Source: a virus (Duplodnaviria > Caudoviricetes). From it: DNA of 30,615 nucleotides. Where the stretch lies: positions 1-30,615 of IMG/VR virus record IMGVR_UViG_3300006105_000077; one strand, 5' to 3'. Each line of letters begins with the position of its first letter. Position 1 is the stretch's first letter. The translations under genes and the position numbers were made by a program. The notes beneath the pieces are model-generated. The model saw nothing but the letters and a program-made list of their open reading frames with translations. It was not told the DNA's origin and did not search any database. Shown here one piece after another: positions 8,536 to 26,474 of the stretch.

Positions 8536-9144
8536 ATGACAGTTGAACTAGACAAAGAAACAATCGCATACCTGAGCCGCCTAATCAAGCGCGGTGGGCA
8601 TCAAGGCGAGCAAGCGCGTGATGTGCTTAAAGCTGCGGGTCTTTCCGACAATGACTTCATCGCAAAAGAAGAAGAAGAGCGCGACTCTCACGGACGTTGG
8701 ACCAGTAGTGGCACACGTGCAGCGGCATCACAAGCAAGTGCTGCAGCGTCTTCTGCGTCGGCAGAAACAAAGGAAACTCGAAGTCGCGAGTTCAATCACA
8801 ATGACGTCAGTAGAGGCGGTGCGGAAGAGTTTGCAAAAGCGTTAGACAAAAGTGCTGCAGCGCATATGGCAGCAGCAGATGCGTGGCGTGAACATGCGAA
8901 TCAGTTGCGCAGTGAAGGAAAAAACGCAGAAGCACGCGCGGCTGAAACGGTAGCCAATAAGCACGAAGCGGCTGCCGAAAAGCACACGCAAGTATCGAAA
9001 GACTTCTCAGGTTGGTCGCGTGGCGTTGCTACGTTCACTCAAGGATACACGCGAGGCGTTGCTAGTCGGCAACCTGACACTGTCGATTGGCGAGTCGGTG
9101 AGCAACTCGACAAGTACAACGCAAAATACGGCGCAAATAAATGA
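8536..9144 (+). CDS. Cassette protein A: leader + RDxxGRW motif + His/Ala-rich helical payload
   Basis: GGAG RBS before ATG 8536; IAKEEEERDSHGRWTSSG at 8659-8712. Confidence 0.7.
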   Translation: MTVELDKETIAYLSRLIKRGGHQGEQARDVLKAAGLSDNDFIAKEEEERDSHGRWTSSGTRAAASQASAAASSASAETKETRSREFNHNDVSRGGAEEFAKALDKSAAAHMAAADAWREHANQLRSEGKNAEARAAETVANKHEAAAEKHTQVSKDFSGWSRGVATFTQGYTRGVASRQPDTVDWRVGEQLDKYNAKYGANK

Positions 9145-9746
9145 CGCTTAACATCACACCTGAATACCGTGCATATCTCGAAGCACAAGTAATGCGAGGC
9201 GGAGAGCGAGGTGCATCCGCGTCTTTGATTCTTATGAAGTATGACCCAGACCAAGCGCGAGACTCAAACGGAGAGTTTGCAAGCGGTTCGTCAGGCGGTG
9301 GTTCGCGCGAAGACCTCACTGGAAAGTACACACCAGCCGACTATGGCGCCGACCCTAAGTTCACTGAAGAAGTTAAAATGGCGCAAGAAGCAATGAAGAA
9401 CGGCGTTACGCCTGAAGAATTCAAGACAAAAAATGTAGCAGAACAAATTAAAAACGCTACTGGAAGAATTACTACTAGCCCATTCCTTGACTTAAATCAA
9501 CGTAGAGACACAGCTTCTGGGCACCGTGCTGCAGCCGGCGCACTTCGCGAAGCTGCAAAACTTACGTCTGACGCAGGTAAAAAAGCGGAGTTTGAACGCG
9601 CTGCAAGTTTGCATGATAAAGCTTATGAGGCGCACGGGAGAGTTTTTATAAAGCAAGACTCGGGCGTCAGTGATATGACTAAATACGAACGAAGCGCATT
9701 TAACGCAACTCAAAAAGCGATGGATGCAACAAAAGGTCTAATGTAG
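9141..9746 (+). CDS. Cassette protein B: leader + RDxxGEF motif + His/Ala-rich payload
   Basis: ITPEYRAYLEA...RGG leader; LMKYDPDQARDSNGEFASG. Confidence 0.7.
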   Translation: MTLNITPEYRAYLEAQVMRGGERGASASLILMKYDPDQARDSNGEFASGSSGGGSREDLTGKYTPADYGADPKFTEEVKMAQEAMKNGVTPEEFKTKNVAEQIKNATGRITTSPFLDLNQRRDTASGHRAAAGALREAAKLTSDAGKKAEFERAASLHDKAYEAHGRVFIKQDSGVSDMTKYERSAFNATQKAMDATKGLM

Positions 9747-10219
9747 TGTCAAACGAATACGAAAACTATCTTGAAGCACTCGCCATTCGCGGCGGGTCTG
9801 AAGGTCTCGCGGCCCAGGAGCAACTGGAAAAGCTCCGTGACGCTGAAGTCAAGAAGTCTAACGAAGATGAAGCACGTGACGAGCATGGACGTTGGGTAAG
9901 TGGCGGCGGCGGCGATTCAAGTAAAGAACACGCTGAGGCGATGACTAAAGCCGCGAACGAAGCAGAAGCTAAAAGTAAGTCGACTACTGACCCTTTAAAA
10001 CGCGAATCATTGCGCGGTCAAGCGAATGCGCTACGCGAAGCAGCGGCTGAGCGCGTTGCTGGTGGACACATTGATTACGTTGGAAAACAAAAAGAAGCGG
10101 ATGCCGCTGAAAAAGAAAGTATGTACAACGGTCGATCGACGCAAGGCTCAGCGTATCATGGTGGACGCTCAGACGGATACGCATATGCGAAACAAATTGC
10201 GTCAGACGGACATCGTTAA
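9746..10219 (+). CDS. Cassette protein C: leader + RDxxGRW motif + Ala-rich payload
   Basis: GTG start overlapping upstream TAG; EYENYLEALAIRGG leader; VKKSNEDEARDEHGRWVSG. Confidence 0.7.
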   Translation: MSNEYENYLEALAIRGGSEGLAAQEQLEKLRDAEVKKSNEDEARDEHGRWVSGGGGDSSKEHAEAMTKAANEAEAKSKSTTDPLKRESLRGQANALREAAAERVAGGHIDYVGKQKEADAAEKESMYNGRSTQGSAYHGGRSDGYAYAKQIASDGHR

Positions 10220-10253
10220 CGTTAGTCGTTCAAAGAAATAGTAAGAAAGCAAA

Positions 10254-11285
10254 ATGAAAAACATTACGCCTGAATACCAAGCTTATCTTGAAGCACTCGC
10301 TCTTCAAGGCGGTGCGCAAGGTCTCGCTGCGCGTGAAACGCTTGAAAAAGCAAAGACCGACTACGACAACATCATCTCCGATCGTAAAGGCGACCCAGCA
10401 AATGAAGACCTTTACAACGTTGTGATTCGCGAAGCAAAAAAGAAGTTTGATGTGTACCCGTCAGCGGTTGCAAATGCTTGGGTCGTTCAAGAATACAAAA
10501 AACGCGGTGGAACATACGGCCCCGTAAAGAAAGCGGAAGTCGCAGTCCCTGAGGGCCACACTGTTGAAGACGTATTGCGTCACGATAAAGGCCATGACGA
10601 TTGGCACGCATCGCACGGTGACCAACCTTGTAAAGATGAAGCAGACTGCGCACGTATGCGTGCAACGTATAAGTCATTTAGCGCAACGCTCGTCAAAGAA
10701 GAAGAACGCGATGAGCACGGACGTTGGACCAGTGGTGGCAGAGAAGCGGCGGCTCAAAATCTAATGGACCAAGCGAAATTTGTCGGTGAAATGGCTAAGT
10801 CGAACGATGACAAAGCTTACGGCATGATTGAAGGACTGTCTCGCGGCGCGCAAATAATTAGAACGTCTGAAAATCCGTCTGCTGAAATCGACAAAATTCG
10901 CTCAGGAATTAGCAGCACTGTCTCATCACACGAGCCGTACGGGTCTAATGAGCACGGACTTGACATTGGCTTACAACGAGCACAAATGCTAATTCCCAAT
11001 TCACCTGAAAGTCAGGTTGACACGTCTAAGTTGAGCCAACTGCTTGGACAAAAAAATCCTGGGAATAACGCGTACGACGGACCAATGCTCGCGCGTCATC
11101 TAGCAGAAGGCGACACAATCAAAGAAATGGGAATGATGCGCAGCACCGGTGTCGTGACGTCAGTCACGCATAATGGTGACGGCACTTTGACTGCTCAGTT
11201 TAATCGACCAGACGGTTCGTACGGCGGCTTTCAGAATTACGGTTTGACGGATATTGTTCGAGTTAATCGTTCAATGAAACAATAA
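10254..11285 (+). CDS. Cassette protein D: leader, DUF5872-like domain, His/Cys segment, RDxxGRW motif, SH3-like C-terminus
   Basis: ITPEYQAYLEALALQGG leader; LYNVVIREAKKKFDVYPSAVANAWVVQEYKKRGGTY; LVKEEERDEHGRWTSGG. Confidence 0.7.
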   Translation: MKNITPEYQAYLEALALQGGAQGLAARETLEKAKTDYDNIISDRKGDPANEDLYNVVIREAKKKFDVYPSAVANAWVVQEYKKRGGTYGPVKKAEVAVPEGHTVEDVLRHDKGHDDWHASHGDQPCKDEADCARMRATYKSFSATLVKEEERDEHGRWTSGGREAAAQNLMDQAKFVGEMAKSNDDKAYGMIEGLSRGAQIIRTSENPSAEIDKIRSGISSTVSSHEPYGSNEHGLDIGLQRAQMLIPNSPESQVDTSKLSQLLGQKNPGNNAYDGPMLARHLAEGDTIKEMGMMRSTGVVTSVTHNGDGTLTAQFNRPDGSYGGFQNYGLTDIVRVNRSMKQ

Positions 11286-11362
11286 GAATAGCGTGATGAA
11301 CACGGACGTTGTCAGTGTCGATCGCTCAAAAAGTAAAACGTAATAACGCATTAAAAAGAGGC

Positions 11363-12277
11363 ATGATGAAAGACACGCAAAAAATAAAAGAGTGGCCCGA
11401 AAGCTATTTTCCACTTTATTTTCGAGTGATGAACGAAAATAAAGTGCGTCTTCGAAAAAATAGCGTAGTGAACATCACGCCATCGAAAAACATCATCGAC
11501 TATTTTACGCATGAAAACGTTGAAACGTTTGTTTGCGATGATAAGTCAATGGTGAAACTTCTTGCGCCTGCGGGCACGTATCACATCACTGCAATTTTGC
11601 GTGACGGTACACTCTTTGAAGACGATTACGTTGTCATGGACCCATTTACTTCTTCAATTACAGAGACGTTCCGTGACGGGCAACCGATTATGTTTCGTCC
11701 TGGGCGATGGGATCGCTACATCCTCAAAGAAAACAGTTACAAACTTCTACCAATTGAAGGCGTGGTTATGGACCTTGGCGCTCACATCGGCACATTTACG
11801 CGTGACGCGCTTACGCATGAAAGTGTGACGAAAGTTATTTCATACGAACCTGACAACACAAACTTTAAGTTTCTTACAATGAACGTTACGTCGCCTAAAG
11901 TAACGTTAATTCACGGTGCTGTAGCAAATGAAGTTGGAGAGCGAACACTTTATTTAAGCTTAAAAGGTGAAGGTGGCGGGTCAGGTCTGCACAGTCTCAT
12001 CCGTGCAACAACGAATAGAGCTCCCATCACGGTGAAAACGTATGACTTTCGCGAAGAACTTGAGAAGCATCAACCGACTACGCTAAAAATAGACATTGAA
12101 GGCGCAGAACGAACGTTCTCTTTTAAAGATTTGCCGTCATCATTGCGTCACATTGCCGTTGAATTTGAGTTTGAACCTGAGATGGAAGAACAAACACGAG
12201 ACATTGAAGCGCAAGGTTTTCATATTCTTCAAGCGACAAAAGGTTGGGCAAAACTTCGCGTTTGGACGAGAGATTAA
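11363..12277 (+). CDS. FkbM-family SAM-dependent methyltransferase
   Basis: VMDLGAHIGTF, SYEPD, KIDIEGAE motifs; AAGAGG RBS before ATG 11363/11366. Confidence 0.85.
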   Translation: MMKDTQKIKEWPESYFPLYFRVMNENKVRLRKNSVVNITPSKNIIDYFTHENVETFVCDDKSMVKLLAPAGTYHITAILRDGTLFEDDYVVMDPFTSSITETFRDGQPIMFRPGRWDRYILKENSYKLLPIEGVVMDLGAHIGTFTRDALTHESVTKVISYEPDNTNFKFLTMNVTSPKVTLIHGAVANEVGERTLYLSLKGEGGGSGLHSLIRATTNRAPITVKTYDFREELEKHQPTTLKIDIEGAERTFSFKDLPSSLRHIAVEFEFEPEMEEQTRDIEAQGFHILQATKGWAKLRVWTRD

Positions 12278-12278
12278 C

Positions 12279-12665
12279 GTGGATGACGCGCAACTCCCTC
12301 TCGATAAGCGAGGGCGCCCTAATCGTTCTTACTTAGGTCATACAAGCGACATCATTCCCACACCGTGGGAGAATGAAGGTGCGTATCTTGAGCCTGGTGC
12401 ACCGCGTCGTTTCCCATTGCGTTCAGTTCGTACGTACGCGCAAGAGAAAGAACGTCGTCGTTTAGCGCAAATTGAAAATGCTGGACGGTGCCAAAGTCGA
12501 GCAAACAAATATGATGCATGGTGTCGCAAGTGGCCGATGAATGGGCTTGACGTATGTCGCTTTCACGGTGGGAAGTTTGCTCACTCAAAGAAAGCCGCAG
12601 CGCGCAATGTTGCAGAGCAGAAGTTGAAGCAGCAAGCGCAGAAGATTCTTCGAAACACGAAGTAG
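12279..12665 (+). CDS. HGGxSTG-like Cys/His domain protein
   Basis: RCQSRANKYDAWCRKWPMNGLDVCRFHGG; GTG start 1 nt after upstream stop (start uncertain). Confidence 0.6.
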   Translation: MDDAQLPLDKRGRPNRSYLGHTSDIIPTPWENEGAYLEPGAPRRFPLRSVRTYAQEKERRRLAQIENAGRCQSRANKYDAWCRKWPMNGLDVCRFHGGKFAHSKKAAARNVAEQKLKQQAQKILRNTK

Positions 12666-12674
12666 AATGTATAT

Positions 12675-12902
12675 ATGCGTACGCGTGATAACTCAACTAT
12701 CATCTCTCTTCGTGTTGAGAAAGCGTTGCACCGTGAATTCACTGCGCTGTCAACAGAACTTGGCGCTTTAACGCCTCGTAAATTGCGCGAAGCGTATTTG
12801 CAACAACTCAAAGAAATGCGCGTGCAAGTGAATGAAAAGCGTGCGCTTCACGGTCGTCCCACATGGGAAGAAGAATTTGGCACGCAGAATGTCGAAGCTT
12901 AA
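12675..12902 (+). CDS. Small protein, possible ribbon-helix-helix DNA-binding protein
   Basis: IISLRVEKALHREF...LREAYL strand-helix-helix pattern; TAGAAT 6 nt upstream. Confidence 0.45.
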   Translation: MRTRDNSTIISLRVEKALHREFTALSTELGALTPRKLREAYLQQLKEMRVQVNEKRALHGRPTWEEEFGTQNVEA

Positions 12903-14559
12903 GGCTGCACTCGAACAAGCACGCGGCATTGTAAAGTACAACGCTGACGAAGAACGAGATAGTCACGGTAGGTTCGCGGGTAGTGGTGGCCAAGGAATAC
13001 CATCTCACTCAGAGTTGATGAGCATGGAGAGGGTTTCAGGGCCTCTTGGGAGCCAAGGCGGTGAGTGGCGTAAGGACGCTAACGGCCAGCAGTATCTCGT
13101 TAAGCCGCTTATCGATGAGAAGCATGGACAAAACGAAGTCGCTGCTGCTGCGGTGTATCACGAAGCAGGCGTACGATTCCCTAACACGGGCGTAGTCAAA
13201 GACGCTAATGGAGACTCTTATCTCGTCAGTCAAAAGATTGATGGGCTCACTCAAAAGAGCGCCGGTGCGTGGCGACGCGACCCAGAACTTCAAGCGCGCG
13301 CAGCACACGACTTCGGCACTGACGCGTTGCTTAGTCACTGGGACGTGCACGGCTTAGAAGCAGACAACACTCTCGTTGCGCAAGACGGTACGCCTACTCG
13401 CATCGAGTCAGGCGGTGCGATGGCGTATCGTGCGATGGGCGGAAACAAAACGACATTCTCCCCTGACGCTGAATGGGTTGAACCGTCATCAATGCGTACG
13501 TCTGACCAAGGCCAAGCGATGTACGGAAACATGACTGATGCGCAAGCGGCCGATTCTCTCGAGCGTGCTGGCAACATCAATCTCGATAACGTTCAATCAC
13601 GGTGGGATGCGATGGGCATCCCTCGTTCAGTGTCTGACCCGTGGATGCAAACACTTCAAGCGCGACAAGCGCAAATTCCTGCGTTAGTTGCGTCATTACG
13701 CGGTGCAAGTAAAGCGTTAAGCGCGTTGAAGCAAGCACGGGCGCTTCTCAAATATGATGAGAATGAAGCGCGTGGTGAAAAGGGAAGATGGGTTGCTGGT
13801 GAAAATACTGGCGCGCATATTGAAGACCTTGCACAAAGTAGAAGTTTCATTAATCGCTTTCACGACTCTAAAGCAACAAATGTCGCTAGAGGAATCAGCG
13901 AAGGCAAAATTAAAGTCGTCTCTGCAACGCATGAAGGTAATACAAGTCACATTGTCACGGCACAAGGTACATTACACGTTACGCGCAATGGTAAAGAAGA
14001 ATGGGCTGGACACTTCTTTCCGAAAGGAATGCCAACTGAATCTGGCACTGGACGAGTCGTATTCTCTGGGAAGAACGTAAGCGGCCTAACAGGACCCGAG
14101 CAACTCGCATTGACTGGGTACAAAGGTGGAATGTTCGTAAACATCAATAATGAATTGCGCGGTACGGGCAAGCAAGAATTAAGTGAATACGATCGACAAC
14201 GAGTAAAAGAAAGCATTACGCAAATCGATCGTATGATGCAACGTTCACCGCTACCTGAAGCGCAAACAGTGTACCGTGGTGTTGCGGGAAAACTTCTTCA
14301 AGGCTTAAAAGTCGGCGACTCATTCACTGATAAAGCATACTCGTCTACGTCACTTTCAAGAAACGTTGCTGAACGTTTTTCTGGCGGTACACGCGGGAGT
14401 GTGCTCGAGGTTTCTCTACCTATTGGGACGCGTGGTATTGAGTTCACGGGTGGGAAACTTGGAAAAGTTGAGCAAGAGATTCTAGTCGACAGAAACACTA
14501 CATACACTGTGACGTCAATTTCTTCTGACGGCACTGTTCACGTGAAGGCTTCACAATGA
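12889..14559 (+). CDS. Cassette protein E: PI3/4-kinase/HipA-like domain + VIP2-like ADP-ribosyltransferase, each preceded by leader + RDxxGR motif
   Basis: Kinase: GSQGG...YLVK, NEV, DALLSHWDVHGLEADN, RIESGG; ART: VYRG, YSSTS, EQE (R-S-ExE). Confidence 0.8.
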   Translation: MSKLKAALEQARGIVKYNADEERDSHGRFAGSGGQGIPSHSELMSMERVSGPLGSQGGEWRKDANGQQYLVKPLIDEKHGQNEVAAAAVYHEAGVRFPNTGVVKDANGDSYLVSQKIDGLTQKSAGAWRRDPELQARAAHDFGTDALLSHWDVHGLEADNTLVAQDGTPTRIESGGAMAYRAMGGNKTTFSPDAEWVEPSSMRTSDQGQAMYGNMTDAQAADSLERAGNINLDNVQSRWDAMGIPRSVSDPWMQTLQARQAQIPALVASLRGASKALSALKQARALLKYDENEARGEKGRWVAGENTGAHIEDLAQSRSFINRFHDSKATNVARGISEGKIKVVSATHEGNTSHIVTAQGTLHVTRNGKEEWAGHFFPKGMPTESGTGRVVFSGKNVSGLTGPEQLALTGYKGGMFVNINNELRGTGKQELSEYDRQRVKESITQIDRMMQRSPLPEAQTVYRGVAGKLLQGLKVGDSFTDKAYSSTSLSRNVAERFSGGTRGSVLEVSLPIGTRGIEFTGGKLGKVEQEILVDRNTTYTVTSISSDGTVHVKASQ

Positions 14560-15398
14560 GTGACAATTACTTTGTATGGGACGATGAAGATGTCGTTATT
14601 CATCGTAATGAAAATGCCACCGAAAAGTCTTTAATGGATGCGTCTCGCGCTGATCGTTTTGCTTGGAGTGAAGATGACATCACTTCTAAAAATAAAGACG
14701 CAAAAAAATCGCTAAGCGTTCTTATTGAAGAAGCACGGGCAATTTCTAAATACAACCCAGAGCAAGAGCGCAACTATCACGGGCGTTTCGCTAGCGGCAC
14801 GAGCGAAGAAACGACTATGATACATCAGTCTGTCTTTAACGGTGCGACACTCGAGCAACTTGAAGAGAAGTACGGCAAAGATAACGCAGAAGTAGAAAAA
14901 ATTGGCAACGCTATTGACGCATGGACGTGGTCAAGAGACACTTCAACTAACATTCGAAATGAGTTCTCTGCAATGCAACGCGGCGAAACAACGAAATCGA
15001 ATGAAGGCGTCAAAGAAATCGCTGACACATTCGCAAGACTGCTAAGTGCAGCGCCACCAGTGGGCGAAATGTATCGCGGAATGTGTTTAAACTCGGAAGA
15101 AGCAGAGAAGTTTCTTCAGCAAGTGTATCAAGGACACGTTGACATCGGTCTTTCATCATTTTCGAAAGAGATGACTATTGCGGATAGATTCTCTGGGCTT
15201 GGCTTAAACGCAGATGAATTAGCGGGTCGCACGCCGTTTCGAATTACCGTTGAAGGTGGTGCGCGAGGCATTGACATTTCTGCGATGAGCCAATTAAAAT
15301 ACGAAAAAGAAATCGTTTCAGCGGGTCGTTTTGAAGTATTACAAGACAAACTAGGAGAGAATGGACAACACTTCATTCGTTTAAGGCAGGTGCAATGA
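14556..15398 (+). CDS. Cassette protein F: ADP-ribosyltransferase (R-S-E clade)
   Basis: ISKYNPEQERNYHGRFASG; MYRG, LSSFS, EKEIV; ATGA overlap with E. Confidence 0.75.
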   Translation: MSDNYFVWDDEDVVIHRNENATEKSLMDASRADRFAWSEDDITSKNKDAKKSLSVLIEEARAISKYNPEQERNYHGRFASGTSEETTMIHQSVFNGATLEQLEEKYGKDNAEVEKIGNAIDAWTWSRDTSTNIRNEFSAMQRGETTKSNEGVKEIADTFARLLSAAPPVGEMYRGMCLNSEEAEKFLQQVYQGHVDIGLSSFSKEMTIADRFSGLGLNADELAGRTPFRITVEGGARGIDISAMSQLKYEKEIVSAGRFEVLQDKLGENGQHFIRLRQVQ

Positions 15399-15556
15399 CA
15401 AAGATTAGTTGGATACCGAAAGACTGGAACCCCACGGTCGACATGCCTTCATTTGCAGAAATGCGTGAAGACATGCCGAAAGCAAATGAAGTGAATGACG
15501 CGGTGAAAGCCGTGCGCAGAGCGCGTAAAGTTTTGCGCGATAAAGAAGTAGAATAA
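15395..15556 (+). CDS. 53-aa hypothetical protein (not in ORF track)
   Basis: ATGA-coupled to F; MTKISWIPKDWNPTVDMPSFAEMREDMPKANEVNDAVKAVRRARKVLRDKEVE. Confidence 0.6.
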   Translation: MTKISWIPKDWNPTVDMPSFAEMREDMPKANEVNDAVKAVRRARKVLRDKEVE

Positions 15557-15560
15557 ACAC

Positions 15561-15800
15561 ATGAGTAAAGTACGTGCAAAAGACACGGGCAAGTATGGGA
15601 AGCATTCGACTGGACTAAGCGTTCAGCCGAGCATTGACCAACTTGACTTGCGCAGCACTACGCGCCCCGTAGTTAATAACTTTCAACGCGGTGAATTAGG
15701 ACCAGACGCAGGACGAGCACGGGCGAACATGCCTGCGGAATCTCAAGGCCCAACCGTACCCACGTTTGGACCTGAGACACCTCCGCACCCACATGCCTGA
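15561..15800 (+). CDS. Hypothetical protein
   Basis: ORF with TAGAAT 6 nt upstream of ATG. Confidence 0.5.
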   Translation: MSKVRAKDTGKYGKHSTGLSVQPSIDQLDLRSTTRPVVNNFQRGELGPDAGRARANMPAESQGPTVPTFGPETPPHPHA

Positions 15801-16254
15801 CTTTGAGTGTGCGGCAGGTTGCTCAAATAGAGGCGTAGAGGCCTCTCAAACCTTGACCATGTCACCCGTCCCACCCGAGGGATGGATTACCTTAGGGCTG
15901 GACATAGCGTCCGCTCAGCCTCCCTATCAGTTTAGGGACGGACGATATAGTGCGATTGTTTGCTCGCTTGATTGCGCAATCACGTTTTTGTCACGGCAAA
16001 AGCGATTGTTTGCGATGGATGTCACGCCTGCGGGTATCGGCTCAAACATTCACGTTCGTGAAGAAACGAGAAGCGACATCACGCGTCGCATCGGTGCGTT
16101 AATTTTGGAAGCGATCGATGAAATGCCAGATGATGGGCGTGCAGTTCTTATTCCGCTTGACCGTGAACGCGACCAATTGCATCGCAATGTTGCAATCGGC
16201 TTACTTTCTTTCGATACTCTCGAGAGCGACACGGAAGAGATCGCGGAAGCGTAG
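15793..16254 (+). CDS. Hypothetical protein with Cys motifs
   Basis: CAAGC...PPEGW...CSLDC; ATG 15793 overlaps upstream ORF end. Confidence 0.55.
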   Translation: MPDFECAAGCSNRGVEASQTLTMSPVPPEGWITLGLDIASAQPPYQFRDGRYSAIVCSLDCAITFLSRQKRLFAMDVTPAGIGSNIHVREETRSDITRRIGALILEAIDEMPDDGRAVLIPLDRERDQLHRNVAIGLLSFDTLESDTEEIAEA

Positions 16255-16653
16255 CGACTTCTTCTCTTCGTGCATAGGCACATGAAGCGCTTTAGCGAGA
16301 GAGTTTAACGTCACCATGTCATCGCGAGGCGATGGCTCAGTAATCATGTGCACCGCTGCGGCAGGCACCATCGCTGTCACGGTGCCTACTTGCGTATACG
16401 CCATTTGCGAGTTAATTGCGAAAAGAGCGCCGAGAGCGAATGCTCGTAACTGCTCTTCGTTAAACGAATCACATTCAATCTTCTCGAGATGTTCGCGAAT
16501 GCTTGCGCGCAATTGTTCAACGGTGACTTGCGCAATGCCTGGGCCAGTTTGCTCCATCGCCATCGTAAACATGTAACGAATCACATCTACCATTTCATCG
16601 TAATTTGGCACTTCGTCCTCTTCATCTTCGATGTATTCGTTGAAGTCCGACAT
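16201..16653 (-). CDS. Hypothetical protein
   Basis: 150-aa ORF, acidic N-terminus, TAGAAT 6 nt upstream. Confidence 0.6.
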   Translation of the reverse strand: MSDFNEYIEDEEDEVPNYDEMVDVIRYMFTMAMEQTGPGIAQVTVEQLRASIREHLEKIECDSFNEEQLRAFALGALFAINSQMAYTQVGTVTAMVPAAAVHMITEPSPRDDMVTLNSLAKALHVPMHEEKKSLRFRDLFRVALESIERK

Positions 16654-16657
16654 GAGA

Positions 16658-18808: not shown

Positions 18809-18885
18809 ATGCGTCTTCCTGATGCGTCCCTGAGTTAATTACATTAACACTCAGCCGCGAATAATTACCGCGCTTTAAAAGAGTG

Positions 18886-19227
18886 TTAGGTGCTTTCCTC
18901 GAGACGACGGCGAGCACGAAGTTCACGGGACGTAGCGCGACGGTCTTTGATGTCGATGTTGATGAGACGTTTGCGCTGTTCTTCATTCATCCCTCCGTGA
19001 ATGCCGTCAACGATGCGATTGTCGATTGAGTACGCGAGACACTCGTCAATGACGGGGCATCGAGCACAGTAGTATCCGGGATTGCCTACTTCATCTTTTA
19101 CGACGAAGTCACTGATTGAAATGATGTCGTCTTCGGTTTCAATTTGTGGATAGAAAAGCGAAAAGCCGACGTCTTTGCATGCAGCGTCGTCTTTCCACTT
19201 TTCTGAGTTAGCGCTTTTTGCGCTCAT
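18886..19227 (-). CDS. whiB: WhiB-family transcription factor
   Basis: W-x-x-x-AAC...LFYP...CARCPVIDECLAY...GIHGGMNEEQR. Confidence 0.85.
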   Translation of the reverse strand: MSAKSANSEKWKDDAACKDVGFSLFYPQIETEDDIISISDFVVKDEVGNPGYYCARCPVIDECLAYSIDNRIVDGIHGGMNEEQRKRLINIDIKDRRATSRELRARRRLEEST

Positions 19228-19229
19228 CG

Positions 19230-19622
19230 TTATCCTGCGCTATTCAATACTTCGCTACACGCTTGCATCACGCCGATAACTTCACCCCACTCATCGAGTG
19301 TGCCATCGACAATGCGAACGAATATGGTGTCATCGTCCTCGTTAGTATACGTCTTAATTTCTGCAATGGCGGCGTCAACGGTTGACTTCACCATCTTTAC
19401 GAACTTCATCGCTGCGGTCCATGACTCGAGAAACGTTGCGTTCATTATGTCTTGCTGACTCACGGCGTTGAGAATGTTGCGATCGACAACGTGCCCTGCG
19501 TCAGTGAACTTCTTTAAGTTTGCGTGCGCAACGTTCGCTTCGTGACGGTGCAAATCACGCTCAACCTCTAACGCCATAATGTGATTGCGCATCGCTTTTT
19601 TTGAGTTTTTACGCGGTGTCAT
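19230..19622 (-). CDS. Hypothetical protein
   Basis: 130-aa ORF in tightly packed minus-strand operon. Confidence 0.6.
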   Translation of the reverse strand: MTPRKNSKKAMRNHIMALEVERDLHRHEANVAHANLKKFTDAGHVVDRNILNAVSQQDIMNATFLESWTAAMKFVKMVKSTVDAAIAEIKTYTNEDDDTIFVRIVDGTLDEWGEVIGVMQACSEVLNSAG

Positions 19623-19804
19623 TTGTCCTCTTTCTCGATGAGTCGTATAAATGCGCGAGCAATGTACAACGCGCCTACCTCAACGAAAAATGCGCCCAAG
19701 CCTGCACGTACGCTCACGGCGAACAACAGCACGGCTGGAAGAAATGCGATAACGCATGCAATAAAAATGACGAGCATGACGGCGAGTGCGTCAGTTAGTT
19801 TCAT
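19619..19804 (-). CDS. Small membrane protein
   Basis: Two hydrophobic segments; AAGGA RBS before ATG 19804. Confidence 0.55.
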   Translation of the reverse strand: MKLTDALAVMLVIFIACVIAFLPAVLLFAVSVRAGLGAFFVEVGALYIARAFIRLIEKEDK

Positions 19805-19940
19805 TTTTGTCCTTGTCTTCAAGTCCAACTTTGATAAAGCCTTTTGCAAAGCCGATTGCGAACCACTCATCATACGTCATTTCTTTTTTGAACGCATTAA
19901 TGATGTTCTTCTTAACTTCTGGCGTAATGATGCGTGACAT
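19791..19940 (-). CDS. 49-aa hypothetical protein (not in ORF track)
   Basis: MSRIITPEVKKNIINAFKKEMTYDEWFAIGFAKGFIKVGLEDKDKNETN; start overlaps upstream stop. Confidence 0.5.
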   Translation of the reverse strand: MSRIITPEVKKNIINAFKKEMTYDEWFAIGFAKGFIKVGLEDKDKNETN

Positions 19941-20095
19941 CACATGATGTCCTTATACGGTGCGATAGCTTCCGTGATTGCGACGTTAATGAATTCACTA
20001 AACGTCATATTGCGAAGAACGCATGCTTTTGCAATGTTCATTAATTCGTCGCCCGTGAAGTCAATTTCGATTGTTGTGTTTTTCGAATCACTCAT
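19940..20095 (-). CDS. 51-aa ribbon-helix-helix-like protein (not in ORF track)
   Basis: IEIDFTGDELMNIAKACVLRNMTFSEFINVAI; GGAG RBS. Confidence 0.55.
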   Translation of the reverse strand: MSDSKNTTIEIDFTGDELMNIAKACVLRNMTFSEFINVAITEAIAPYKDIM

Positions 20096-20279
20096 CATTG
20101 CTCCAAAGTATGTTTGATAGATACGGACTCACTAATGCATATTCTTCTGCTTCACGCCCAACAGCGTTAAAGATAGAGCGCAAAAGCTTCTTCTGTTTGC
20201 GAGGTAAACGTGTCGCGTAAGCAATGCATAGTCGTTTGTCACGCATAGTCACCGTCCAATATTCGCACTTTCGTTCCAT
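20088..20279 (-). CDS. Hypothetical protein
   Basis: 63-aa ORF filling operon gap. Confidence 0.45.
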   Translation of the reverse strand: MERKCEYWTVTMRDKRLCIAYATRLPRKQKKLLRSIFNAVGREAEEYALVSPYLSNILWSNDE

Positions 20280-20281
20280 GA

Positions 20282-20545
20282 TTAGCGCGTTCGCCCTCTC
20301 ATGTATAAACTCGCTGCTTCACGACACGGTGCACAACGACAACCATAATTTGCGTATGCGTTGTATGTTCCATGAATAACATAGTCCGGTACGATAACTT
20401 CTGGCGCGCACTTTTCGCAGAGAACGCGTTTGTCGCCTCTAAGCGTCTGCCAACCTGCGGCAATTGCTTTTGTCGTTGTAACGAAAAACTTCTTTACGCC
20501 GCATTCATCACATTCAATGAGCCAGCCTTTAATTTTCGCCATCAT
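20282..20545 (-). CDS. Zn-binding protein (CxxC pairs + HGT...GCRC..C motif)
   Basis: CDECG, CEKC, HGTYNAYANYGCRCAPCREA, a pattern typical of actinophage proteins. Confidence 0.6.
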   Translation of the reverse strand: MMAKIKGWLIECDECGVKKFFVTTTKAIAAGWQTLRGDKRVLCEKCAPEVIVPDYVIHGTYNAYANYGCRCAPCREAASLYMRGRTR

Positions 20546-20697
20546 TCACATCCGTTCATGCATTTTCTTTTGAGACGGTTATCTTTGCCGAAAATAAATT
20601 GTGTGTCGCATTTTGCGCAGTGATACACATCAACAACTATGCGTCGAACGACGGGTCCAGTCGGCGGTCTGTGCGTACGCTTCTTTGTCTTCTTCAC
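20542..20697 (-). CDS. 51-aa Cys-containing protein (not in ORF track)
   Basis: GTG start; ...YHCAKCDTQF...KCMNGCE; stop overlaps next start. Confidence 0.45.
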   Translation of the reverse strand: MKKTKKRTHRPPTGPVVRRIVVDVYHCAKCDTQFIFGKDNRLKRKCMNGCE

Positions 20698-20753
20698 AAT
20701 TCATTTGCTTTCGTGATAGCGGGTGGGCTATCGATTGTATTACGCTTTAAACG

Positions 20754-21035
20754 TTACGGCAGGCTTTTTGCTAATGTGTCACTGGTGTGTGCATCAATTA
20801 TGTCAGAGAGTGCTTGGTAGCAATCCCACCACCCCATGTCGTAGCCCTTGCGATGCGCCAGTTCGGTTTCAGTGGGTGGGTAGTCGAGGTCGGTCATGCG
20901 CTTGTCGTCGGCTTCGACTTCTCCCTTCGACGGTGGCTTGTGCTTCAGCAGGCGCTCGGAGATGAGTTCTAAAAGGAGTTCCTCGACACGCTTGCTATGC
21001 ACATCTCGTAGGGCTTGGCGTTCTTCGGGGGTCAC
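20754..21035 (-). CDS. Hypothetical protein
   Basis: MTPEERQALR N-terminus; GTGA coupling. Confidence 0.55.
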   Translation of the reverse strand: MTPEERQALRDVHSKRVEELLLELISERLLKHKPPSKGEVEADDKRMTDLDYPPTETELAHRKGYDMGWWDCYQALSDIIDAHTSDTLAKSLP

Positions 21036-21214
21036 GGTACGTCATCTCCCATGTGCATCTTATCGATGATTGCTTTGTTTCGATCGGCGACTTTCTTAAA
21101 GTCACCGTCCCAACCTTTGCCGCCCAGCCAAGCGGCGAACGCTGCGCCGAGCTCATCATCGGTGATGTTATGCTTTGCGACAAACGCGTCAAAATCGTCG
21201 AATGCTTCGCTCAT
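21032..21214 (-). CDS. Hypothetical protein
   Basis: 60-aa ORF coupled to neighbours. Confidence 0.55.
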   Translation of the reverse strand: MSEAFDDFDAFVAKHNITDDELGAAFAAWLGGKGWDGDFKKVADRNKAIIDKMHMGDDVP

Positions 21215-21218
21215 TTCG

Positions 21219-21293
21219 TTACCGTGCGATGAATGCGCGTAAGAAATAACCTGCGGCGAACGCTATCAATGCGTGTGCGACACCTATCGACAT
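21219..21293 (-). CDS. 24-aa hydrophobic peptide (not in ORF track)
   Basis: MSIGVAHALIAFAAGYFLRAFIAR; TAATG coupling to upstream gene. Confidence 0.4.
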   Translation of the reverse strand: MSIGVAHALIAFAAGYFLRAFIAR

Positions 21294-21475
21294 TACAACT
21301 CCAAGCCACACATTGGGCAGAACTTGAATGCGGTGTTTGCGCGGAAGTACTTGTGGTCGCCGTAACGACGGTCCTTGTTGTCGTGAGCTGATTCGAAACG
21401 ACGAAGGAGTCCGCCAACGTTCACGAGACCGTCAGTCACGGGAGTGTCATTCTTCTTTACGTTAATTGTCTTCAT
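21293..21475 (-). CDS. Hypothetical protein with C-terminal FCPMCG
   Basis: KFCPMCGLEL zinc-ribbon half; start reassigned to ATG 21475. Confidence 0.5.
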   Translation of the reverse strand: MKTINVKKNDTPVTDGLVNVGGLLRRFESAHDNKDRRYGDHKYFRANTAFKFCPMCGLEL

Positions 21476-21644
21476 TGTCTTCACTTTCTTTTGTAGGTGG
21501 GGTTGCGACACGGGCGGGTAAGCGACATTCGTCATACCATTCAATTAGCATTCCGAAGTCGTTACGTAACACGTGAGTGTATGCAATCACATTATCATCA
21601 GTGTCATATTCTTCAATTGGCATATCGCATAGTGTGCATTTCAT
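21462..21644 (-). CDS. Small Cys/His protein
   Basis: MKCTLCDMPI...YTH...C; ATGA coupling. Confidence 0.5.
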   Translation of the reverse strand: MKCTLCDMPIEEYDTDDNVIAYTHVLRNDFGMLIEWYDECRLPARVATPPTKESEDNEDN

Positions 21645-21829
21645 CGACGATACACCCACCAACACGTCATAATGATTGCGAACATCACAATCATAATGCC
21701 AAGCATTATGAACGGCAATTGGAGAAAGAACATCGCGCCTTCACGGTCACGAAAGTTATCGCTGAAAAACATCGCGAGACCGAAATATGCAAGCACGGGC
21801 AGTGCGAACTTAAGAATCTCGCGTATCAT
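21641..21829 (-). CDS. Small membrane protein
   Basis: Two hydrophobic helices. Confidence 0.55.
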   Translation of the reverse strand: MIREILKFALPVLAYFGLAMFFSDNFRDREGAMFFLQLPFIMLGIMIVMFAIIMTCWWVYRR

Positions 21830-22167
21830 TCCGGCTTCTTTTTCGTTATCTCATGAGGCCAATTCTTTTTCAGCCAATGATTCGAAACAATCTTCCATTC
21901 ACTTGTCATCTTCGGCGTCGCAGTTTGAATAGCCCGACATTGGTCGGGGGCGTCAAGGACGACAGGGTAAATGTGACGATACCGCCCATCGAATCGGATG
22001 TCTTTGATGATGGCTTCACCGCAATGTTCGCATTCTTCATGCGGAATGTGCTTATCAATGTCATGCGCTTCAGCGAGCGCGGTTGCTTCGCTTTCGGACG
22101 CACACGCCGTGAACACTGAACACTCGTGACACGAGAACACCCATATTTGATTAACTTTCGCCGTCAT
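21826..22167 (-). CDS. Cys/His-rich hypothetical protein
   Basis: CHEC...AH...H, CEHCGEAI...YRH...C; TAATG coupling at 22167. Confidence 0.55.
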   Translation of the reverse strand: MTAKVNQIWVFSCHECSVFTACASESEATALAEAHDIDKHIPHEECEHCGEAIIKDIRFDGRYRHIYPVVLDAPDQCRAIQTATPKMTSEWKIVSNHWLKKNWPHEITKKKPE

Positions 22168-22313
22168 TAGAGAGGCCTCCATTCATTACAGTCGCACGTG
22201 AGTGTGCACATCATTACATTGTCGATGAGACGGTGAGCGTCAGCGAGATGTGAGCACTCACAAATCGATGTGTCAATCACCGGCTCAATGTCATACGGTA
22301 TTGCAATTGTCAT
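22167..22313 (-). CDS. 48-aa Cys/His protein (not in ORF track)
   Basis: CECSHLADAH...C...CDC motif; AAGGAG RBS; coupled on both sides. Confidence 0.6.
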   Translation of the reverse strand: MTIAIPYDIEPVIDTSICECSHLADAHRLIDNVMMCTLTCDCNEWRPL

Positions 22314-22819
22314 ACTTCTCCTTCTGTGATAAGAATTCCCGTGTTCATGTCAAAACGTTCACGAACGACTTTACGCTTCTTGTTGTTCTTTTCGCTGACG
22401 AGACGAAATTGCACGAGACACGCTTCGCACGCTTGTTCGCCTCGACGCTTATGCGCACGGTACCCGCCAGCGCCAGGCTTCCCACATTCGAACGTACGAA
22501 TTGCGGGATTGTTTGTCGCTGATGTGTGCGGTTGACGAGTGAATGCATCAGTGAGTTTGACGCGGCGAATCTTACGTATCTGAATGCGCTCACGCTCAGT
22601 CGTCCCACCCCAAAAGCCGTAGCGTTCATAAAGGAGTGCGTAGTCTAGGCAATCGTTTACGATGGTGCACTTATCGCACATCATTCGTACTCGAAAAGGC
22701 ACCGGCTCTTCGAAAAAGTCGACCTTCGACTTTGCGCATTCGCCGAGTTCACGGATGTCGAGAAGACGACGCTTTGCGTCTTCTAACGTACCGTCAATTG
22801 TCTCTTTGTACTTCGTCAT
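22310..22819 (-). CDS. whiB: WhiB-family transcription factor with C-terminal Cys/His extension
   Basis: C...DFF...CDKCTIVNDCLDYA...GFWGGTTERER; CG-x-x-GAGGYRAH...ACEAC. Confidence 0.85.
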   Translation of the reverse strand: MTKYKETIDGTLEDAKRRLLDIRELGECAKSKVDFFEEPVPFRVRMMCDKCTIVNDCLDYALLYERYGFWGGTTERERIQIRKIRRVKLTDAFTRQPHTSATNNPAIRTFECGKPGAGGYRAHKRRGEQACEACLVQFRLVSEKNNKKRKVVRERFDMNTGILITEGEV

Positions 22820-23255
22820 TACTTGTCCTCTTTCGTCTTACAACTTTCTTTGTGTGCGTTTCGCAAAAAACGAAACGCCCACTTTTGTCGGGCGAACCCA
22901 TTTCGCCGCACACTTCACACGTTTTGCGAGCGAGCTCTTGCGCTTTCACTACAATAGCGATGCACTTTTTAACTAATTCGTCGTCATCATACGACGGGAG
23001 ACGAAAGAAATATTGAATCGTTCCGTTCGACTTCGTAAGTGACGTAATCTTATAGTTATGACACAGAGCATCAAGTTGCTCGTTAGCATTAACGATTAAC
23101 GGATACCAGCCAACGCTCACTCCTATGTGCGGCCAATATCCTGAACTCATTCGTTGAATGATGTCGAGCAATTGGTCACGGTAATCACCGGCATCATCAG
23201 GAATGAATTCAACGTCGCTTCGTGAGTGGCGGTTTTCTTGCACACGCACTCTCAT
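22794..23255 (-). CDS. Conserved phage protein with CxxCG...CxxH motif
   Basis: GWYPLI...G-T-I-x-Y...TCEVCGEMG...CETH. Confidence 0.6.
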   Translation of the reverse strand: MRVRVQENRHSRSDVEFIPDDAGDYRDQLLDIIQRMSSGYWPHIGVSVGWYPLIVNANEQLDALCHNYKITSLTKSNGTIQYFFRLPSYDDDELVKKCIAIVVKAQELARKTCEVCGEMGSPDKSGRFVFCETHTKKVVRRKRTSNDEVQRDN

Positions 23256-23293
23256 TTGCTTCTCCCTTCATGTAACGTGAATTCGTAGATGTC

Positions 23294-23302
23294 ACAATAA
23301 CA
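23294..23302 (-). promoter_or_regulatory. Extended -10 element (TGTTATTGT) for minus-strand operon
   Basis: Same TGTTAT(A/T)GT as at 4652 and 30494; no clear -35. Confidence 0.35.
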
Positions 23303-23557
23303 TACCTTTGTAACATCGGTGTGGCATTCGCAAAAAATATTTTCGAATCATAGAAATGAAGAAGCCTGTGCTCGGGAAGGGTGACCAAACACAGGCTCTC
23401 TTCATCTCACGTGCCGTGTGGCATGCATTAGGGACGCAAACGTGAGCGGGTTGGTGACGCTGTAGATGTCGCAACTCTTCACGGCGCGCCGGAGGAGTGG
23501 GACTCAATTATCGTAACATCGGCGATGAGTGCGTACACTCATTCTGAGACGGTGTTA

Positions 23558-23917
23558 CTAACGAAGTGCGGCTGCTGCCTTCGCGGTGATGCCAATTGTT
23601 GAGGAATCAATGATGCCGCTCGTTTGCGCAAGCATTGGGTCAGCAAACACACGAGACATACCGATAACATTAGTTTCATTCGCTTCATTGATGCACCATT
23701 GAATGAATTCGTCAGACGTCATGCTTTCTACTTCTGGCAAATTGTGCAATTGAGAAAGCAATTGTTCGGCGTATTGTTGTGACGCATCATTAAGACCCCA
23801 CACTTCTAAGTCATCGTTGTCGGGACCAATGTAGAAACGCATGCCCGTGTCGAAAAGTTTAGGCTTAAGTTCGAATGGGTTGTACTCGAAAATGCCGACA
23901 ACTTGTTTGCTCGCCAT
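23558..23917 (-). CDS. Hypothetical protein coupled to kinase gene
   Basis: TGATG overlap with upstream 813-aa gene. Confidence 0.6.
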   Translation of the reverse strand: MASKQVVGIFEYNPFELKPKLFDTGMRFYIGPDNDDLEVWGLNDASQQYAEQLLSQLHNLPEVESMTSDEFIQWCINEANETNVIGMSRVFADPMLAQTSGIIDSSTIGITAKAAAALR

Positions 23918-26358
23918 CAGTGCGCCTTCCTAACTAAAGTGCCAATCTTAATTTTGCCCGTGGATACGCGTTTGAGATGTGACGCAATGCTTTTCGTAAC
24001 AGACAATACGTTTGATGGGTCATTGAACGTTACGTCTGATTGCGATGACAATGATGAGACCGTGTTTGCGCCTAACGCAGTTGATAGCGCGCCAGGTATC
24101 ATGCCAATGCCTGAGCCTGAGCCTCTACCTAGGAGGTTAGGCTTATTATCGAATATGCCAGTCGAAAGATATCCTGGACTCGAAGTCATTTCAACGTTCA
24201 GGTCAACGTTTTGATATGAACGCATAAAGTCAGCGGTTGCGTCAACTACGTTTTGACGCAATGATTCAGCGAACGGCGTAGGCGTAAGAGTGACGGTGCC
24301 ATCGCGATTCGTTTGCGAATTTGTCATCAACGGCATTCCAATCATCGCATTTAACGCTTCAATTTGACTAATGCCCCAAGTTGTTTTCGGTTTTATTGCG
24401 TCGCCGGTGTTCTGTCTAATTTCATCAACGATCGGGCCAAAAGTAGTGTTTGCACGGAGTCCTGGTATGCGATTGGGAAGCACATCATTCATCTGTTGAT
24501 TGAAGCCAAAGCCTGCGTCGTACGGGACAACGCCAATGCTCGGGTCGGGGTTAATAAAGTAATTGCTGTCGTGACGGTCGCTGTTGCCGATAAGAGCGTC
24601 GAGCAACATCATGCGTTGCATTTGATCGAAGTTCGACGCTTGAACTGTTGCGTCGCTTGTGTGAGAAGCCGTTTTAAGTGAATTACCATTAGCATCACGG
24701 ATGCGGTCCATGATTACACCATTAAATTGCGCACCTGCTGGAAGTTTTGACGGGTCAGTGATGATAACCGCTGAGCCTGTGTAACTCGGCCGAATGTAGC
24801 ACGGAATTGTTGCAGCGTAATTTAGTCCAAGTCGTTGCGCAAGAAGAGAAGCGTACACTTCATTGCCAATTTCTTTGTAGCCGCTTGTGACTCTTTTCGC
24901 AAACAATTGACTACCATCAGCCGCTTCGACTCTAAACGTACCTGCGTTAATTGCGCCGCCTACGTTTACCTTTGTAATTTGTGCGCCTTGTGAAGCATCA
25001 AGGTTGCCTGGCTTTGCGCATGTCGCAGCGAGTTCAGCATTCGTAATGCCCCATCCGCCGTTACGCACATCACCTGCGCTGAATGGCGCGGCAGGACTTG
25101 ATGCGTCCAATTCTCGCGCACGCGCGTTTACAGCGCCAATGAATGCAGAGAATTCTTGCGTAGAGAGATTCTTTGCATTATCAATTTTTGCTTTATGCTC
25201 AAGTTTTTCTTTTTCTTCTTTCGCTCTTTTTTCTTCTTCCGCCTTAATCTTGTCTGCGGCAAGTGCTTTGTATTGCGCCCATTCGGACTCACTTGCAACT
25301 GGACGGGTCATTTGCGCCCTGCTCCACGCTCGTTGCGCAGCAGTGTACGTCTTAACGTAGACGTTTCCACCGTCGGTTTTTACGTAATAGTCAATACGCC
25401 CACGACCTTGGTCGCGAATACCGACAAGATCGCCTACAACTGTGCCTATTTCACCGTATGGAGCATCACTATTAAATGGGAGTGTTATGCGATTGCCAAC
25501 TGCAAAGTCTTCCCACGGTACGCTTCCATGAGTGCCGTACCATTTTCCATTCGCATCCATAACTGGAAATGACGGAATGCGACGTTCTTCTAGCGACGGA
25601 ACGCTTGCAACACGCGGTTCGCAAGAAACACTTGCAGACGACGGAATGACATGTGTTTCAACGCTTCCGTCTTCTTTGCGAACTTTCACTTCACGGGCAC
25701 CGCCCGGGACAGGCTTAATGCCCGTCACAACTCCTGAGACGACGAGACCGTTTAGTAGTTTCGTAATGCGGTCGCCTACTTCAACGTTTTTAATTGAGAG
25801 TGGAATCTTTTGTGCGTACTCTTTTTGAGATGACGACTCTTGTGGTGCGGGCGGTTTGACGCTTGCATCTGGCTTCACTCCAACGTCTGGCTTACCACCT
25901 CCAACGGGCTTCGCACCACCGTCCGCAGGCTTGCCACCGCCGGGCATCTTTGCGGGTGCAGTCTTCGGCTCCGCTTGCGTACCACGCGTCACAACGAATT
26001 GAACGGTGGGCTTAAAGTAGTTCGAGATGACGTGACCGTTCTTGAACTGAAGTTTGATGCGTGGCCCACGGTCTTCTTTGCCCGGCGCAGCGGGCGTAAT
26101 CGCAATCACTCGTCCACCGTCCATGAGCGGATTGCCGTGGTGAACGATGTCACCGACGCGAATCTTATCGCCATTGACGAACATTTGATTCTTGCCGTGC
26201 GGCGTGACAGTGCCGCCTTCACTCGCGAATTCACCCGCTTCAGTGCGCTCTTGCGTTGCGCCTGACACGGCGTCTTTCAAGAGAGTGCCGAGAACAATTT
26301 TGTTGGGAAGCGCCTGCTTTTGCTTCTGTACGACGCCAATGACAATCTTTTTGCTCAT
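23917..26358 (-). CDS. Cassette protein G: leader + RTxxGEF motif, three SH3-like barrels, HipA/PI3-4-kinase-like domain
   Basis: LLKDAVSGATQERTEAGEFASEGG; kinase GGAINAGTF...LFAK, NEVYAS, LDALIGNSDRHDSN, PYDAG. Confidence 0.8.
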   Translation of the reverse strand: MSKKIVIGVVQKQKQALPNKIVLGTLLKDAVSGATQERTEAGEFASEGGTVTPHGKNQMFVNGDKIRVGDIVHHGNPLMDGGRVIAITPAAPGKEDRGPRIKLQFKNGHVISNYFKPTVQFVVTRGTQAEPKTAPAKMPGGGKPADGGAKPVGGGKPDVGVKPDASVKPPAPQESSSQKEYAQKIPLSIKNVEVGDRITKLLNGLVVSGVVTGIKPVPGGAREVKVRKEDGSVETHVIPSSASVSCEPRVASVPSLEERRIPSFPVMDANGKWYGTHGSVPWEDFAVGNRITLPFNSDAPYGEIGTVVGDLVGIRDQGRGRIDYYVKTDGGNVYVKTYTAAQRAWSRAQMTRPVASESEWAQYKALAADKIKAEEEKRAKEEKEKLEHKAKIDNAKNLSTQEFSAFIGAVNARARELDASSPAAPFSAGDVRNGGWGITNAELAATCAKPGNLDASQGAQITKVNVGGAINAGTFRVEAADGSQLFAKRVTSGYKEIGNEVYASLLAQRLGLNYAATIPCYIRPSYTGSAVIITDPSKLPAGAQFNGVIMDRIRDANGNSLKTASHTSDATVQASNFDQMQRMMLLDALIGNSDRHDSNYFINPDPSIGVVPYDAGFGFNQQMNDVLPNRIPGLRANTTFGPIVDEIRQNTGDAIKPKTTWGISQIEALNAMIGMPLMTNSQTNRDGTVTLTPTPFAESLRQNVVDATADFMRSYQNVDLNVEMTSSPGYLSTGIFDNKPNLLGRGSGSGIGMIPGALSTALGANTVSSLSSQSDVTFNDPSNVLSVTKSIASHLKRVSTGKIKIGTLVRKAH

Positions 26359-26396
26359 GTGCACAATTCTACTTCACAGTGTGAAAACACATTGCG

Positions 26397-26467
26397 CTCC
26401 CGAGCAAGGATTCGAACCTCGATTCACAGAACCAAAATCTGTTGTCCTGCCGTTAGACGACTCGGGA
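26397..26467 (-). tRNA. tRNA-Gln (anticodon UUG), no encoded CCA
   Basis: Acceptor TCCCGAG/CTCGGGA, anticodon arm ACAGA-TTTTGGT-TCTGT, T-arm CGAGG-TTCGAAT-CCTTG. Confidence 0.92.
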
Positions 26468-26474
26468 ATGAGTG

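Follow-up and report, generated by a model that had tools for sequence, protein, structure and literature searches.

Seven proteins encoded in a 30,615-nucleotide stretch of tailed-phage DNA (IMG/VR record IMGVR_UViG_3300006105_000077; Duplodnaviria, Caudoviricetes) carry eight copies of a short peptide tag. The stretch, referred to here as the window, is the whole 30.6-kb virus record and a fragment of a larger phage. Each tagged module of the seven proteins, A to G, has the same layout: a leader, a hydrophobic-x-Lys site, a tag of ~14 residues and a swappable payload. A first-pass annotation had proposed that these proteins are packaged in the prohead, cut after the Lys by the prohead protease and injected with the tag as a new N-terminus.

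The tagged cassette

8536..9144, + strand: protein A; type-1 leader, IAK site (8659-8667), tag, Ala-rich payload without a known fold
9141..9746, + strand: protein B; type-1 leader, LMK site (9231-9239), tag, payload without a known fold
9746..10219, + strand: protein C; type-1 leader, VKK site (9848-9856), tag, Ala-rich payload
10254..11285, + strand: protein D; type-1 leader, DUF5872-like module, His/Cys module, LVK site (10689-10697), tag, payload
12832..14559, + strand: protein E; type-2 leader, IVK site, tag, atypical kinase-fold domain, repeated leader, LLK site, tag, R-S-E ADP-ribosyltransferase (ART)
14556..15398, + strand: protein F; type-2 leader, ISK site (14742-14750), tag, likely R-S-E ART
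23917..26358, - strand: protein G; short leader, LLK site (26283-26275), divergent tag, several domains, HipA/PI-kinase-like end; beside tRNA-Gln

All eight copies were found where the first-pass annotation had placed them, every one directly after [ILV]-x-K. The core Arg is at positions 8680, 9258, 9875, 10707, 12955, 13771 and 14769 on the + strand and at 26247 on the - strand. A composite pattern, derived from the copies in that annotation, produced 8 matches in six frames, whereas 200 shuffles of the residues averaged 0.04 (maximum 1). With only the strict core RDxxG[RK][WF] the count was 4 versus 0.07 in shuffles. The DNA copies of the tag are 64-81% alike. In 3/8 tags (A, D and G) the leading aromatic residue is missing or the spacing is divergent, and C has Ser at the aromatic position. 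One leader type, which is helical, is common to A-D and another is common to E and F. Protein D contains two extra Lys-delimited modules without a tag, with Lys sites at the module joints; its DUF5872 match is below the Pfam cut-off.

The C-terminal domain of E is an ART (PF03496, E 2e-20; Alt-like phrog, E 3e-6). F has no Pfam ART match. It has the R-S-E residues and 30% identity over 128 amino acids (aa) to the E ART (pairwise E 1e-6), along with a weak 'minor head protein' PHROG match (E 0.014). Of the two R-S-E ARTs originally called, the one in E is confirmed by Pfam, and the one in F is likely from its residues and pairwise likeness only. The first payload of E is predicted to have an atypical kinase fold, with a mean predicted local distance difference test score (pLDDT) of 75. 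Its matches in the PDB were kinases throughout, the best being CtkA with template-modeling scores of 0.47/0.55, and the viral models nearest to it include gp67 of phage GodonK as well as a portal fusion. A Glu occupies the likely metal-binding Asp position, as assigned by eye, in 9/10 homologues. Protein G matches HipA_2 (E 1.7e-4) and PI3_PI4 (E 0.017), both below the curated cut-offs, and pairwise alignment of the kinase-like regions of E and G was uninformative. No family was assigned to the payloads of A-D. Described earlier as His/Ala helical, A-C are indeed Ala-rich (14-18%), but the His content was overstated (1.5-3.5%). Pfam identified no peptidase family and no MuF domain in the seven window proteins.

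Payload swapping at the tag

A search with the leader alignment identified two loci, one of them in a complete 88-kb genome, G001, whose gene order is that of the window from dUTPase to primase. The likeness of A, B and C to their G001 counterparts stops right after the tag, and the payloads are unrelated. Identity is 61% for A (residues 1-56 only), 72% for B (residues 5-47 only) and 59% for C (residues 1-51 only). In contrast, the primase and DUF932 proteins, encoded by two housekeeping genes nearby, are 67% and 60% identical to those of G001 over their whole length. The slot of E is filled in G001 by an ART plus an unnamed module, and that of F by a Zeta-type kinase. Among nine homologues of the first half of E, one (P0151) joins the leader of F to the kinase payload of E, and another has a different ART behind the second tag. 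These comparisons with G001 and P0151 support the proposal that the payloads are interchangeable. The type-1 leader also heads untagged Lys-delimited modules, both in D and in a 159-aa protein of the relative. The His/Cys module of D is also present in the relative.

The G001 genome contains 14 tag matches, seven in its cassette and seven in two giant proteins of 1692 and 1500 aa encoded between the portal and protease genes. All seven tags of the giants follow Lys. In the 1500-aa protein (L010 5993-10495, - strand) a short Trp-containing leader precedes three of four tags; the first three payloads are mutually alike and GNAT-like by eye, and the last module has an HExxH motif.

Distribution of the tag

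A profile of 29 positions, built from the eight window copies, was used to search 1.84 billion cluster representatives and matched 835 protein clusters at E ≤0.001. Rather than a family private to this phage, the motif is a widespread module header. From 563 copies in the best 150 of the 835 the consensus is [YF]-[SDN]-[PE]-D-[QE]-[PAE]-R-D-x-x-G-R-[WF]-[TAS]-x-G-G, with the Arg and Gly invariant and a basic-aromatic pair present. Within these best 150 proteins the tags have a median spacing of 240 aa (n=420), equivalent to one tag per module, and 146/150 proteins extend at least 100 aa beyond the last tag. Lys precedes 366/531 anchored tags, which partly reflects the query. Giant proteins have up to 9 tags each. 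Across phages the tag lies 0-3 residues past the predicted cut, and the residues ahead of it are Lys, Asp, Asn, Arg, Glu, Ala-Ala, or the start codon.

Thirty of the best 150 proteins were scanned with Pfam, which found matches in 19/30 and no known domain in 11/30. The domains were ART (8), Zeta (3), MuF (3) and PI-kinase-like (2), as well as GNAT, InPase, LPD1 and ART-PolyVal. Tag loci were taken from among the matches listed in two DNA-pattern scans, and the tag-locus counts given here refer to these. In total 142 locus proteins were scanned, comprising most of the first half of 283 candidate open reading frames (ORFs) plus 5 controls; LPD3 occurs in 2 tag-locus proteins. Tags were found on portal tails, on MuF proteins, inside proteases and in solo genes. 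MuF was present in 34/61 tag loci versus 2/23 untagged loci, a control that is unmatched for head modules. MuF was rejected as a universal tag partner, being common rather than universal.

Among cultivated phages, DSL-LC01 and GodonK carry the tag after (L/V/I)-x-Ala-Ala plus a spacer, and Orimi01 has it on the portal, after Asp and ahead of an ART. A tblastn search of cultivated phages with K-type tags found nothing. In loci L055, L025 and L163 the tag begins the protein, within scaffold-type head modules (portal, MuF-like protein, scaffold). No protease gene was recognized in these three, where only the Lys-type profile was searched genome-wide; two L163 proteins match 'head maturation protease' PHROGs, via the MuF region and the tag region. 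In L166 a native N-terminal tag stands beside a DUF2213 protease. A second tag family, G-H-x-F-x-G-N-Q-[WY], has 8 distinct copies and, like a GGxGSG variant (e.g. P0157, L054), is found after Lys, Asp or Glu sites ahead of payloads.

NCBIfam had no match for the tag, PHROGs returned only a portal family and unnamed families, and the best ESM Atlas match (0.86) is unnamed. Searched with 60 tag peptides, Pfam gave no matching family at E up to 1, a result that also bears on what the tag might bind. The first-pass annotation had suggested that the motif is a DNA-binding or ejection signal. In the DNA-binding case the freed tag would bind packaged DNA and the payloads would leave with the genome. 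The invariant Arg, the Gly and the basic-aromatic pair could suit such a role, and DNA would be the only partner common to all these head types. However, the net charge of all eight mature window tags is 0 to -3. Because the tags are neutral to acidic a protein partner is favored, and DNA binding is very unlikely to be their main job.

Head protease and predicted cut sites

The domain family of the G001 protease matches Peptidase_S78 in 9/14 and XkdF in 9/14 aligned members, and the protein itself matches head maturation protease PHROGs (E 2e-5). No match was found for this domain among solved structures. The protease/scaffold protein of G001 has 20 hydrophobic-x-Lys-small sites versus 10.5 +/- 2.8 in shuffles. 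The tail proteins have 22 versus 22.6 expected, which is no excess, and the other proteins of the window also have no excess. The first 100 residues of the likely capsid protein have 3 Lys sites versus 1.3, and the remainder has 1 versus 1.4. In HK97 cleavage occurs at K103/S104 (PMC10275583).

Profiles from 7 seed proteases identified a protease in 53 loci. Eight of these were dropped because their contig, or one nearly identical to it, was already represented, and one because it did not derive from a tag search; of the 44 loci kept, 38 have an anchored tag. The residue before the tag is Lys in 17/20 loci with the G001/XkdF-like protease type versus 3/18 others (p 5e-5), and Asp in 9/11 DUF2213 loci versus 4/27 others (p 2e-4). 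After clustering of the proteases the Lys link was 12/14 versus 3/17 at 60% and 9/11 versus 3/14 at 50%. The Asp link gave p values of 0.007, 0.03 and 0.04 at 60, 50 and 40%, with 6/8 versus 4/17 at 50%. When the tags were masked, only Lys sites were enriched in the scaffold tails of the G001/XkdF-like type (175 versus 101, 1.73x), while DUF2213 tails were enriched in Asp (114 versus 79, 1.44x) and Asn (47 versus 34, 1.38x). This comparison with scaffold-tail sites and protease type supports the suggestion that the Lys is the likely site of the prohead protease of this lineage. In L018, L077 and L175 Asn replaces Asp both in the scaffold sites and before the tag, and two of the three have DUF2213-type proteases; a specificity switch within one protease family is possible.

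Neighboring genes and habitat

11277..11311, + strand: decayed tag-like stretch; spans and follows the stop codon of D, contains stops, out of frame with the FkbM ORF
11309..12277, + strand: FkbM-family methyltransferase; untagged, missing at this place in the relative
12096..12665, + strand: HGGxSTG-domain protein within the cassette; true start likely further in; E 7e-5, under the cut-off
23558..23917, - strand: small ORF directly after G; no family match

The decayed stretch is 77% alike to the DNA of tag A, and its letters were identical in an independent run. One contig from a lake run (depth 2.6) is without 11301-12293, and its junction is inside the decayed stretch after D. As judged from these sequences, the FkbM gene (window 11277-12293) is a variable insertion whose left junction is in the tag-like stretch. 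In run X2 a joint links tag A to tag D, with 30 letters on its shorter side; it was considered as a deletion, but a variant allele with D-like tag codons fits better because a loose end runs on into the payload of A.

The insertion bears on whether the tag is only an extended prime-side element for protease recognition or spacing, doubling as a recombination handle for payload swaps, and has no job after maturation. Its junction inside the tag-like stretch (in the single contig) would fit, as would the position of the tag 0-3 residues beyond the predicted cut, the loss of likeness between relatives at the tag and the similarity of the DNA copies. On the other hand, this one tag follows the sites of differing protease families, scaffold sites look cut-like without any tag, and the tag occurs at native N-termini, where cutting is needless. 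We regard a role confined to recognition and recombination as quite unlikely.

It could also be argued that the window proteins are unpackaged, being intracellular descendants of head-cargo modules, with the tag having a role inside the infected cell or persisting as a relic. The cassette has non-structural flanks and does not belong to the head operon, a decayed tag copy exists, and 3/8 tags are atypical (with the Ser of C besides). Yet only the leader, the Lys and the tag of these proteins are conserved between the window and G001, and since no other parts are conserved, selection appears to act on these three. Loss of packaging is the least probable of the explanations considered here.

The HGGxSTG protein is conserved in the relative (64% over 124 aa). 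It was rejected as a small terminase, another candidate being adjacent to the large terminase of G001. The ORFs downstream of G (119 aa) and F (79 aa) match no family; the former (23558..23917) is possibly a partner or immunity-like gene of G. Within window 23558-26831, G, this small ORF, tRNA-Gln and GroES lie between genes whose G001 counterparts are near neighbors by eye. Because those counterparts nearly adjoin, the block may be an insertion. In window 1677-4524 glycosyltransferase-like, dUTPase-like and C5 methylase-like genes occur in a row, possibly a DNA-modification cluster. The leader region of the Rpf-like transglycosylase gene (window 7915-8035, + strand) is kept in G001 (L007 7175-7290). 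It has no Rfam match and its folding energy is not unusual (z 0.49); a cis element is possible.

Two WhiB genes, the Rpf-like transglycosylase, a primase-polymerase, a resolvase and tRNA-Gln are encoded in the window, which makes it likely that the phage infects Actinobacteria, in a freshwater habitat. All 11 metagenome runs with at least 1/5 of the cassette words were freshwater (3/11 possibly the source), and no RNA run was among the holders listed.

Interpretation

The window proteins have a modular build, their payloads are swapped at the tag, the tag is tied to head genes in relatives, and the residue before it matches the sites in scaffold tails. We suggest that the leader would load each module into the prohead and that the S78-type head protease of the phage would cut after Lys. 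The tag would remain as the new N-terminus of the freed module and would dock it on a head component for retention and then ejection into the host, where the ART and kinase-fold payloads would modify the host. We give this scheme as a whole, a removable carrier, a protease cut and a retained N-terminal tag that docks or ejects the cargo, a probability of about 0.55. On sequence evidence the cassette proteins are probably packaged, and cutting at Lys is likely, if slightly less so. The balance tips modestly toward a job for the tag after cutting, and the chances are about even that the modules are ejected and that the ART and kinase-fold payloads modify the host.

Three observations argue that the tag acts after the cut. 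It is repeated for each module though one address per chain would suffice, it also follows portal and protease carriers, which enter the prohead anyway, and it starts the protein in L055, L025 and L163. The leaderless proteins are also the best evidence for a rival, namely that the tag itself is the prohead-loading address, working before or regardless of the cut, while the Lys site only frees the modules or trims an expression leader. The leaderless proteins sit in head modules, and solo tagged genes distant from the head operon need some address. This reading is difficult to reconcile with giants that have up to 9 copies where a single one would do, with tags behind portal and protease carriers, and with a type-1 leader that also heads untagged Lys-delimited modules. 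Consequently we consider loading by the tag unlikely, and favor a tag that is retained and used after the cut.

Several points weigh against the proposed scheme. The Lys pattern is loose, with 39 sites in the cassette versus 31 +/- 5 expected, many of them within payloads, and neither the giant proteins nor the portal of G001 are clearly enriched. In the predicted structure of E both tags have pLDDT <50 and lie outside the folded domain, in line with the expectation that the motif is not integral to a folded payload, but the model was built on a 10-sequence alignment and its low pLDDT is weak evidence of disorder. Portal, protease and capsid genes were not found among the 37 window ORFs scanned, so the protease and capsid are borrowed from G001. 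That protease alone matches S78 with an E of only 0.048 and does not match XkdF (PF14550), and the capsid gene was called from its position (a phrog without known function). The proposed link to the head module holds by gene context in relatives, whereas ~20 kb separate the G001 cassette from the head operon, its neighbors are non-structural genes, and a search for a late promoter in common gave none. The Lys link weakens to 6/8 versus 2/10 at 40% clustering (p 0.054), and shared descent passes on the protease type along with the tag variant and the site. An unsupervised site test over all locus proteins of 84 loci gave 0.31 versus 0.27 (p 0.13), and when 31 of the loci were selected post hoc the values were 0.54 versus 0.29 +/- 0.07. 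The window sizes used to relate site and protease were picked after the data were seen. Finally, the baseplate hub gp113 of phage 7-7-1 (L275 3903-5267) has an inserted tag-like peptide without the leading aromatic (E 0.67). This baseplate hub (PMC12796354) is an exception to the head context and the only solved structure in which a similar peptide was found.

A broader and more doubtful idea is that tailed phages universally use the tag, once maturation is complete, as an N-terminal delivery signal that queues freed effectors for ejection via the portal and tail. Depending on the lineage, it might then be unmasked by that phage's head protease (at Lys, Asp, Asn, Arg, Glu or Ala-Ala) or by the start codon, though this too is a tentative extension. 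If true, unrelated head types would share a sequence code for protein ejection, the first of its kind, injected effectors would be readable from sequence in hundreds of clusters, and chosen proteins could be delivered to bacteria.

How proteins are chosen, released and ejected from heads is known in detail for few phages. Placed ahead of almost every module in a broad class of multi-enzyme phage proteins, the tag shows where modules start and lists candidate injected effectors, and its tracking of the protease gives predicted cut specificities for unstudied families, such as DUF2213. The cultivated carriers GodonK, DSL-LC01 and Orimi01 allow a direct test.

Comparison with known systems

Earlier work already describes ARTs packaged in heads, fusions to MuF and to the portal, and polyvalent proteins (PMC9503650, PMC5512222, PMC5576092, PMC7824862). 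A literature search found no description of the tag; the supplements of the polyvalent-protein paper, which were outside its scope, may list the motif. No such tag is named in the accessible parts of that paper (PMC5512222) or of the XkdF paper (PMC7824862), and the word 'motif' is absent from the available main text of the MuF paper (PMC5576092). The tag is a real and widespread module header that is apparently undescribed so far.

In HK97, as here, an S78-type protease (gp4) cleaves after Lys, at K103/S104 of gp5. The substrate there is the scaffold domain of the capsid protein itself, and no tagged cargo is described in the part of the source available (PMC10275583).

MuF polymorphic toxins share with the tagged proteins variable enzyme payloads after a head-targeting part and genes beside the portal (PMC5576092, PMC9503650), and in other phages the tag is found on MuF and portal fusions. 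They differ in the MuF domain, which is in none of the seven window proteins.

Polyvalent proteins are likewise multi-domain and head-associated, with ART, kinase, GNAT, InPase, LPD1/LPD3 and ParB domains and a proposed proteolytic release (PMC5512222). They are defined by at least two unrelated effector domains, which are present in E, the G001 giants and P0001-P0150, whereas A, B, C and F are single-module. The domain repertoire is shared, as seen in the 19/30 scanned tagged proteins with Pfam matches. An embedded zincin (MPTase), proposed as the cutter in the same account, is found in about 36% of members and is not a required feature; it is missing from the seven window proteins, and HExxH occurs in the 1500-aa protein of G001. 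The joints also differ, being here a head-protease site plus a repeated tag, with many single-module genes.

The closest parallel is with T4. Its protease, gp21, cleaves after L/I-x-E and strips the internal proteins of their loading signal (PMC9026906). IPI-III and Alt have a short N-terminal propeptide, a hydrophobic-x-P1 site and unrelated payloads that include an R-S-E ART (PMC9026906); they are packaged and ejected, as is predicted for the window proteins. P1 is Glu in T4 versus Lys at all eight window sites, and gp21 is replaced by an S78/XkdF-like protease. The T4 signal is removed, whereas the tag is predicted to stay, and modules of the window type are also chained in polyproteins. 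The tagged cassette would work like the T4 internal-protein system without being a member of it.

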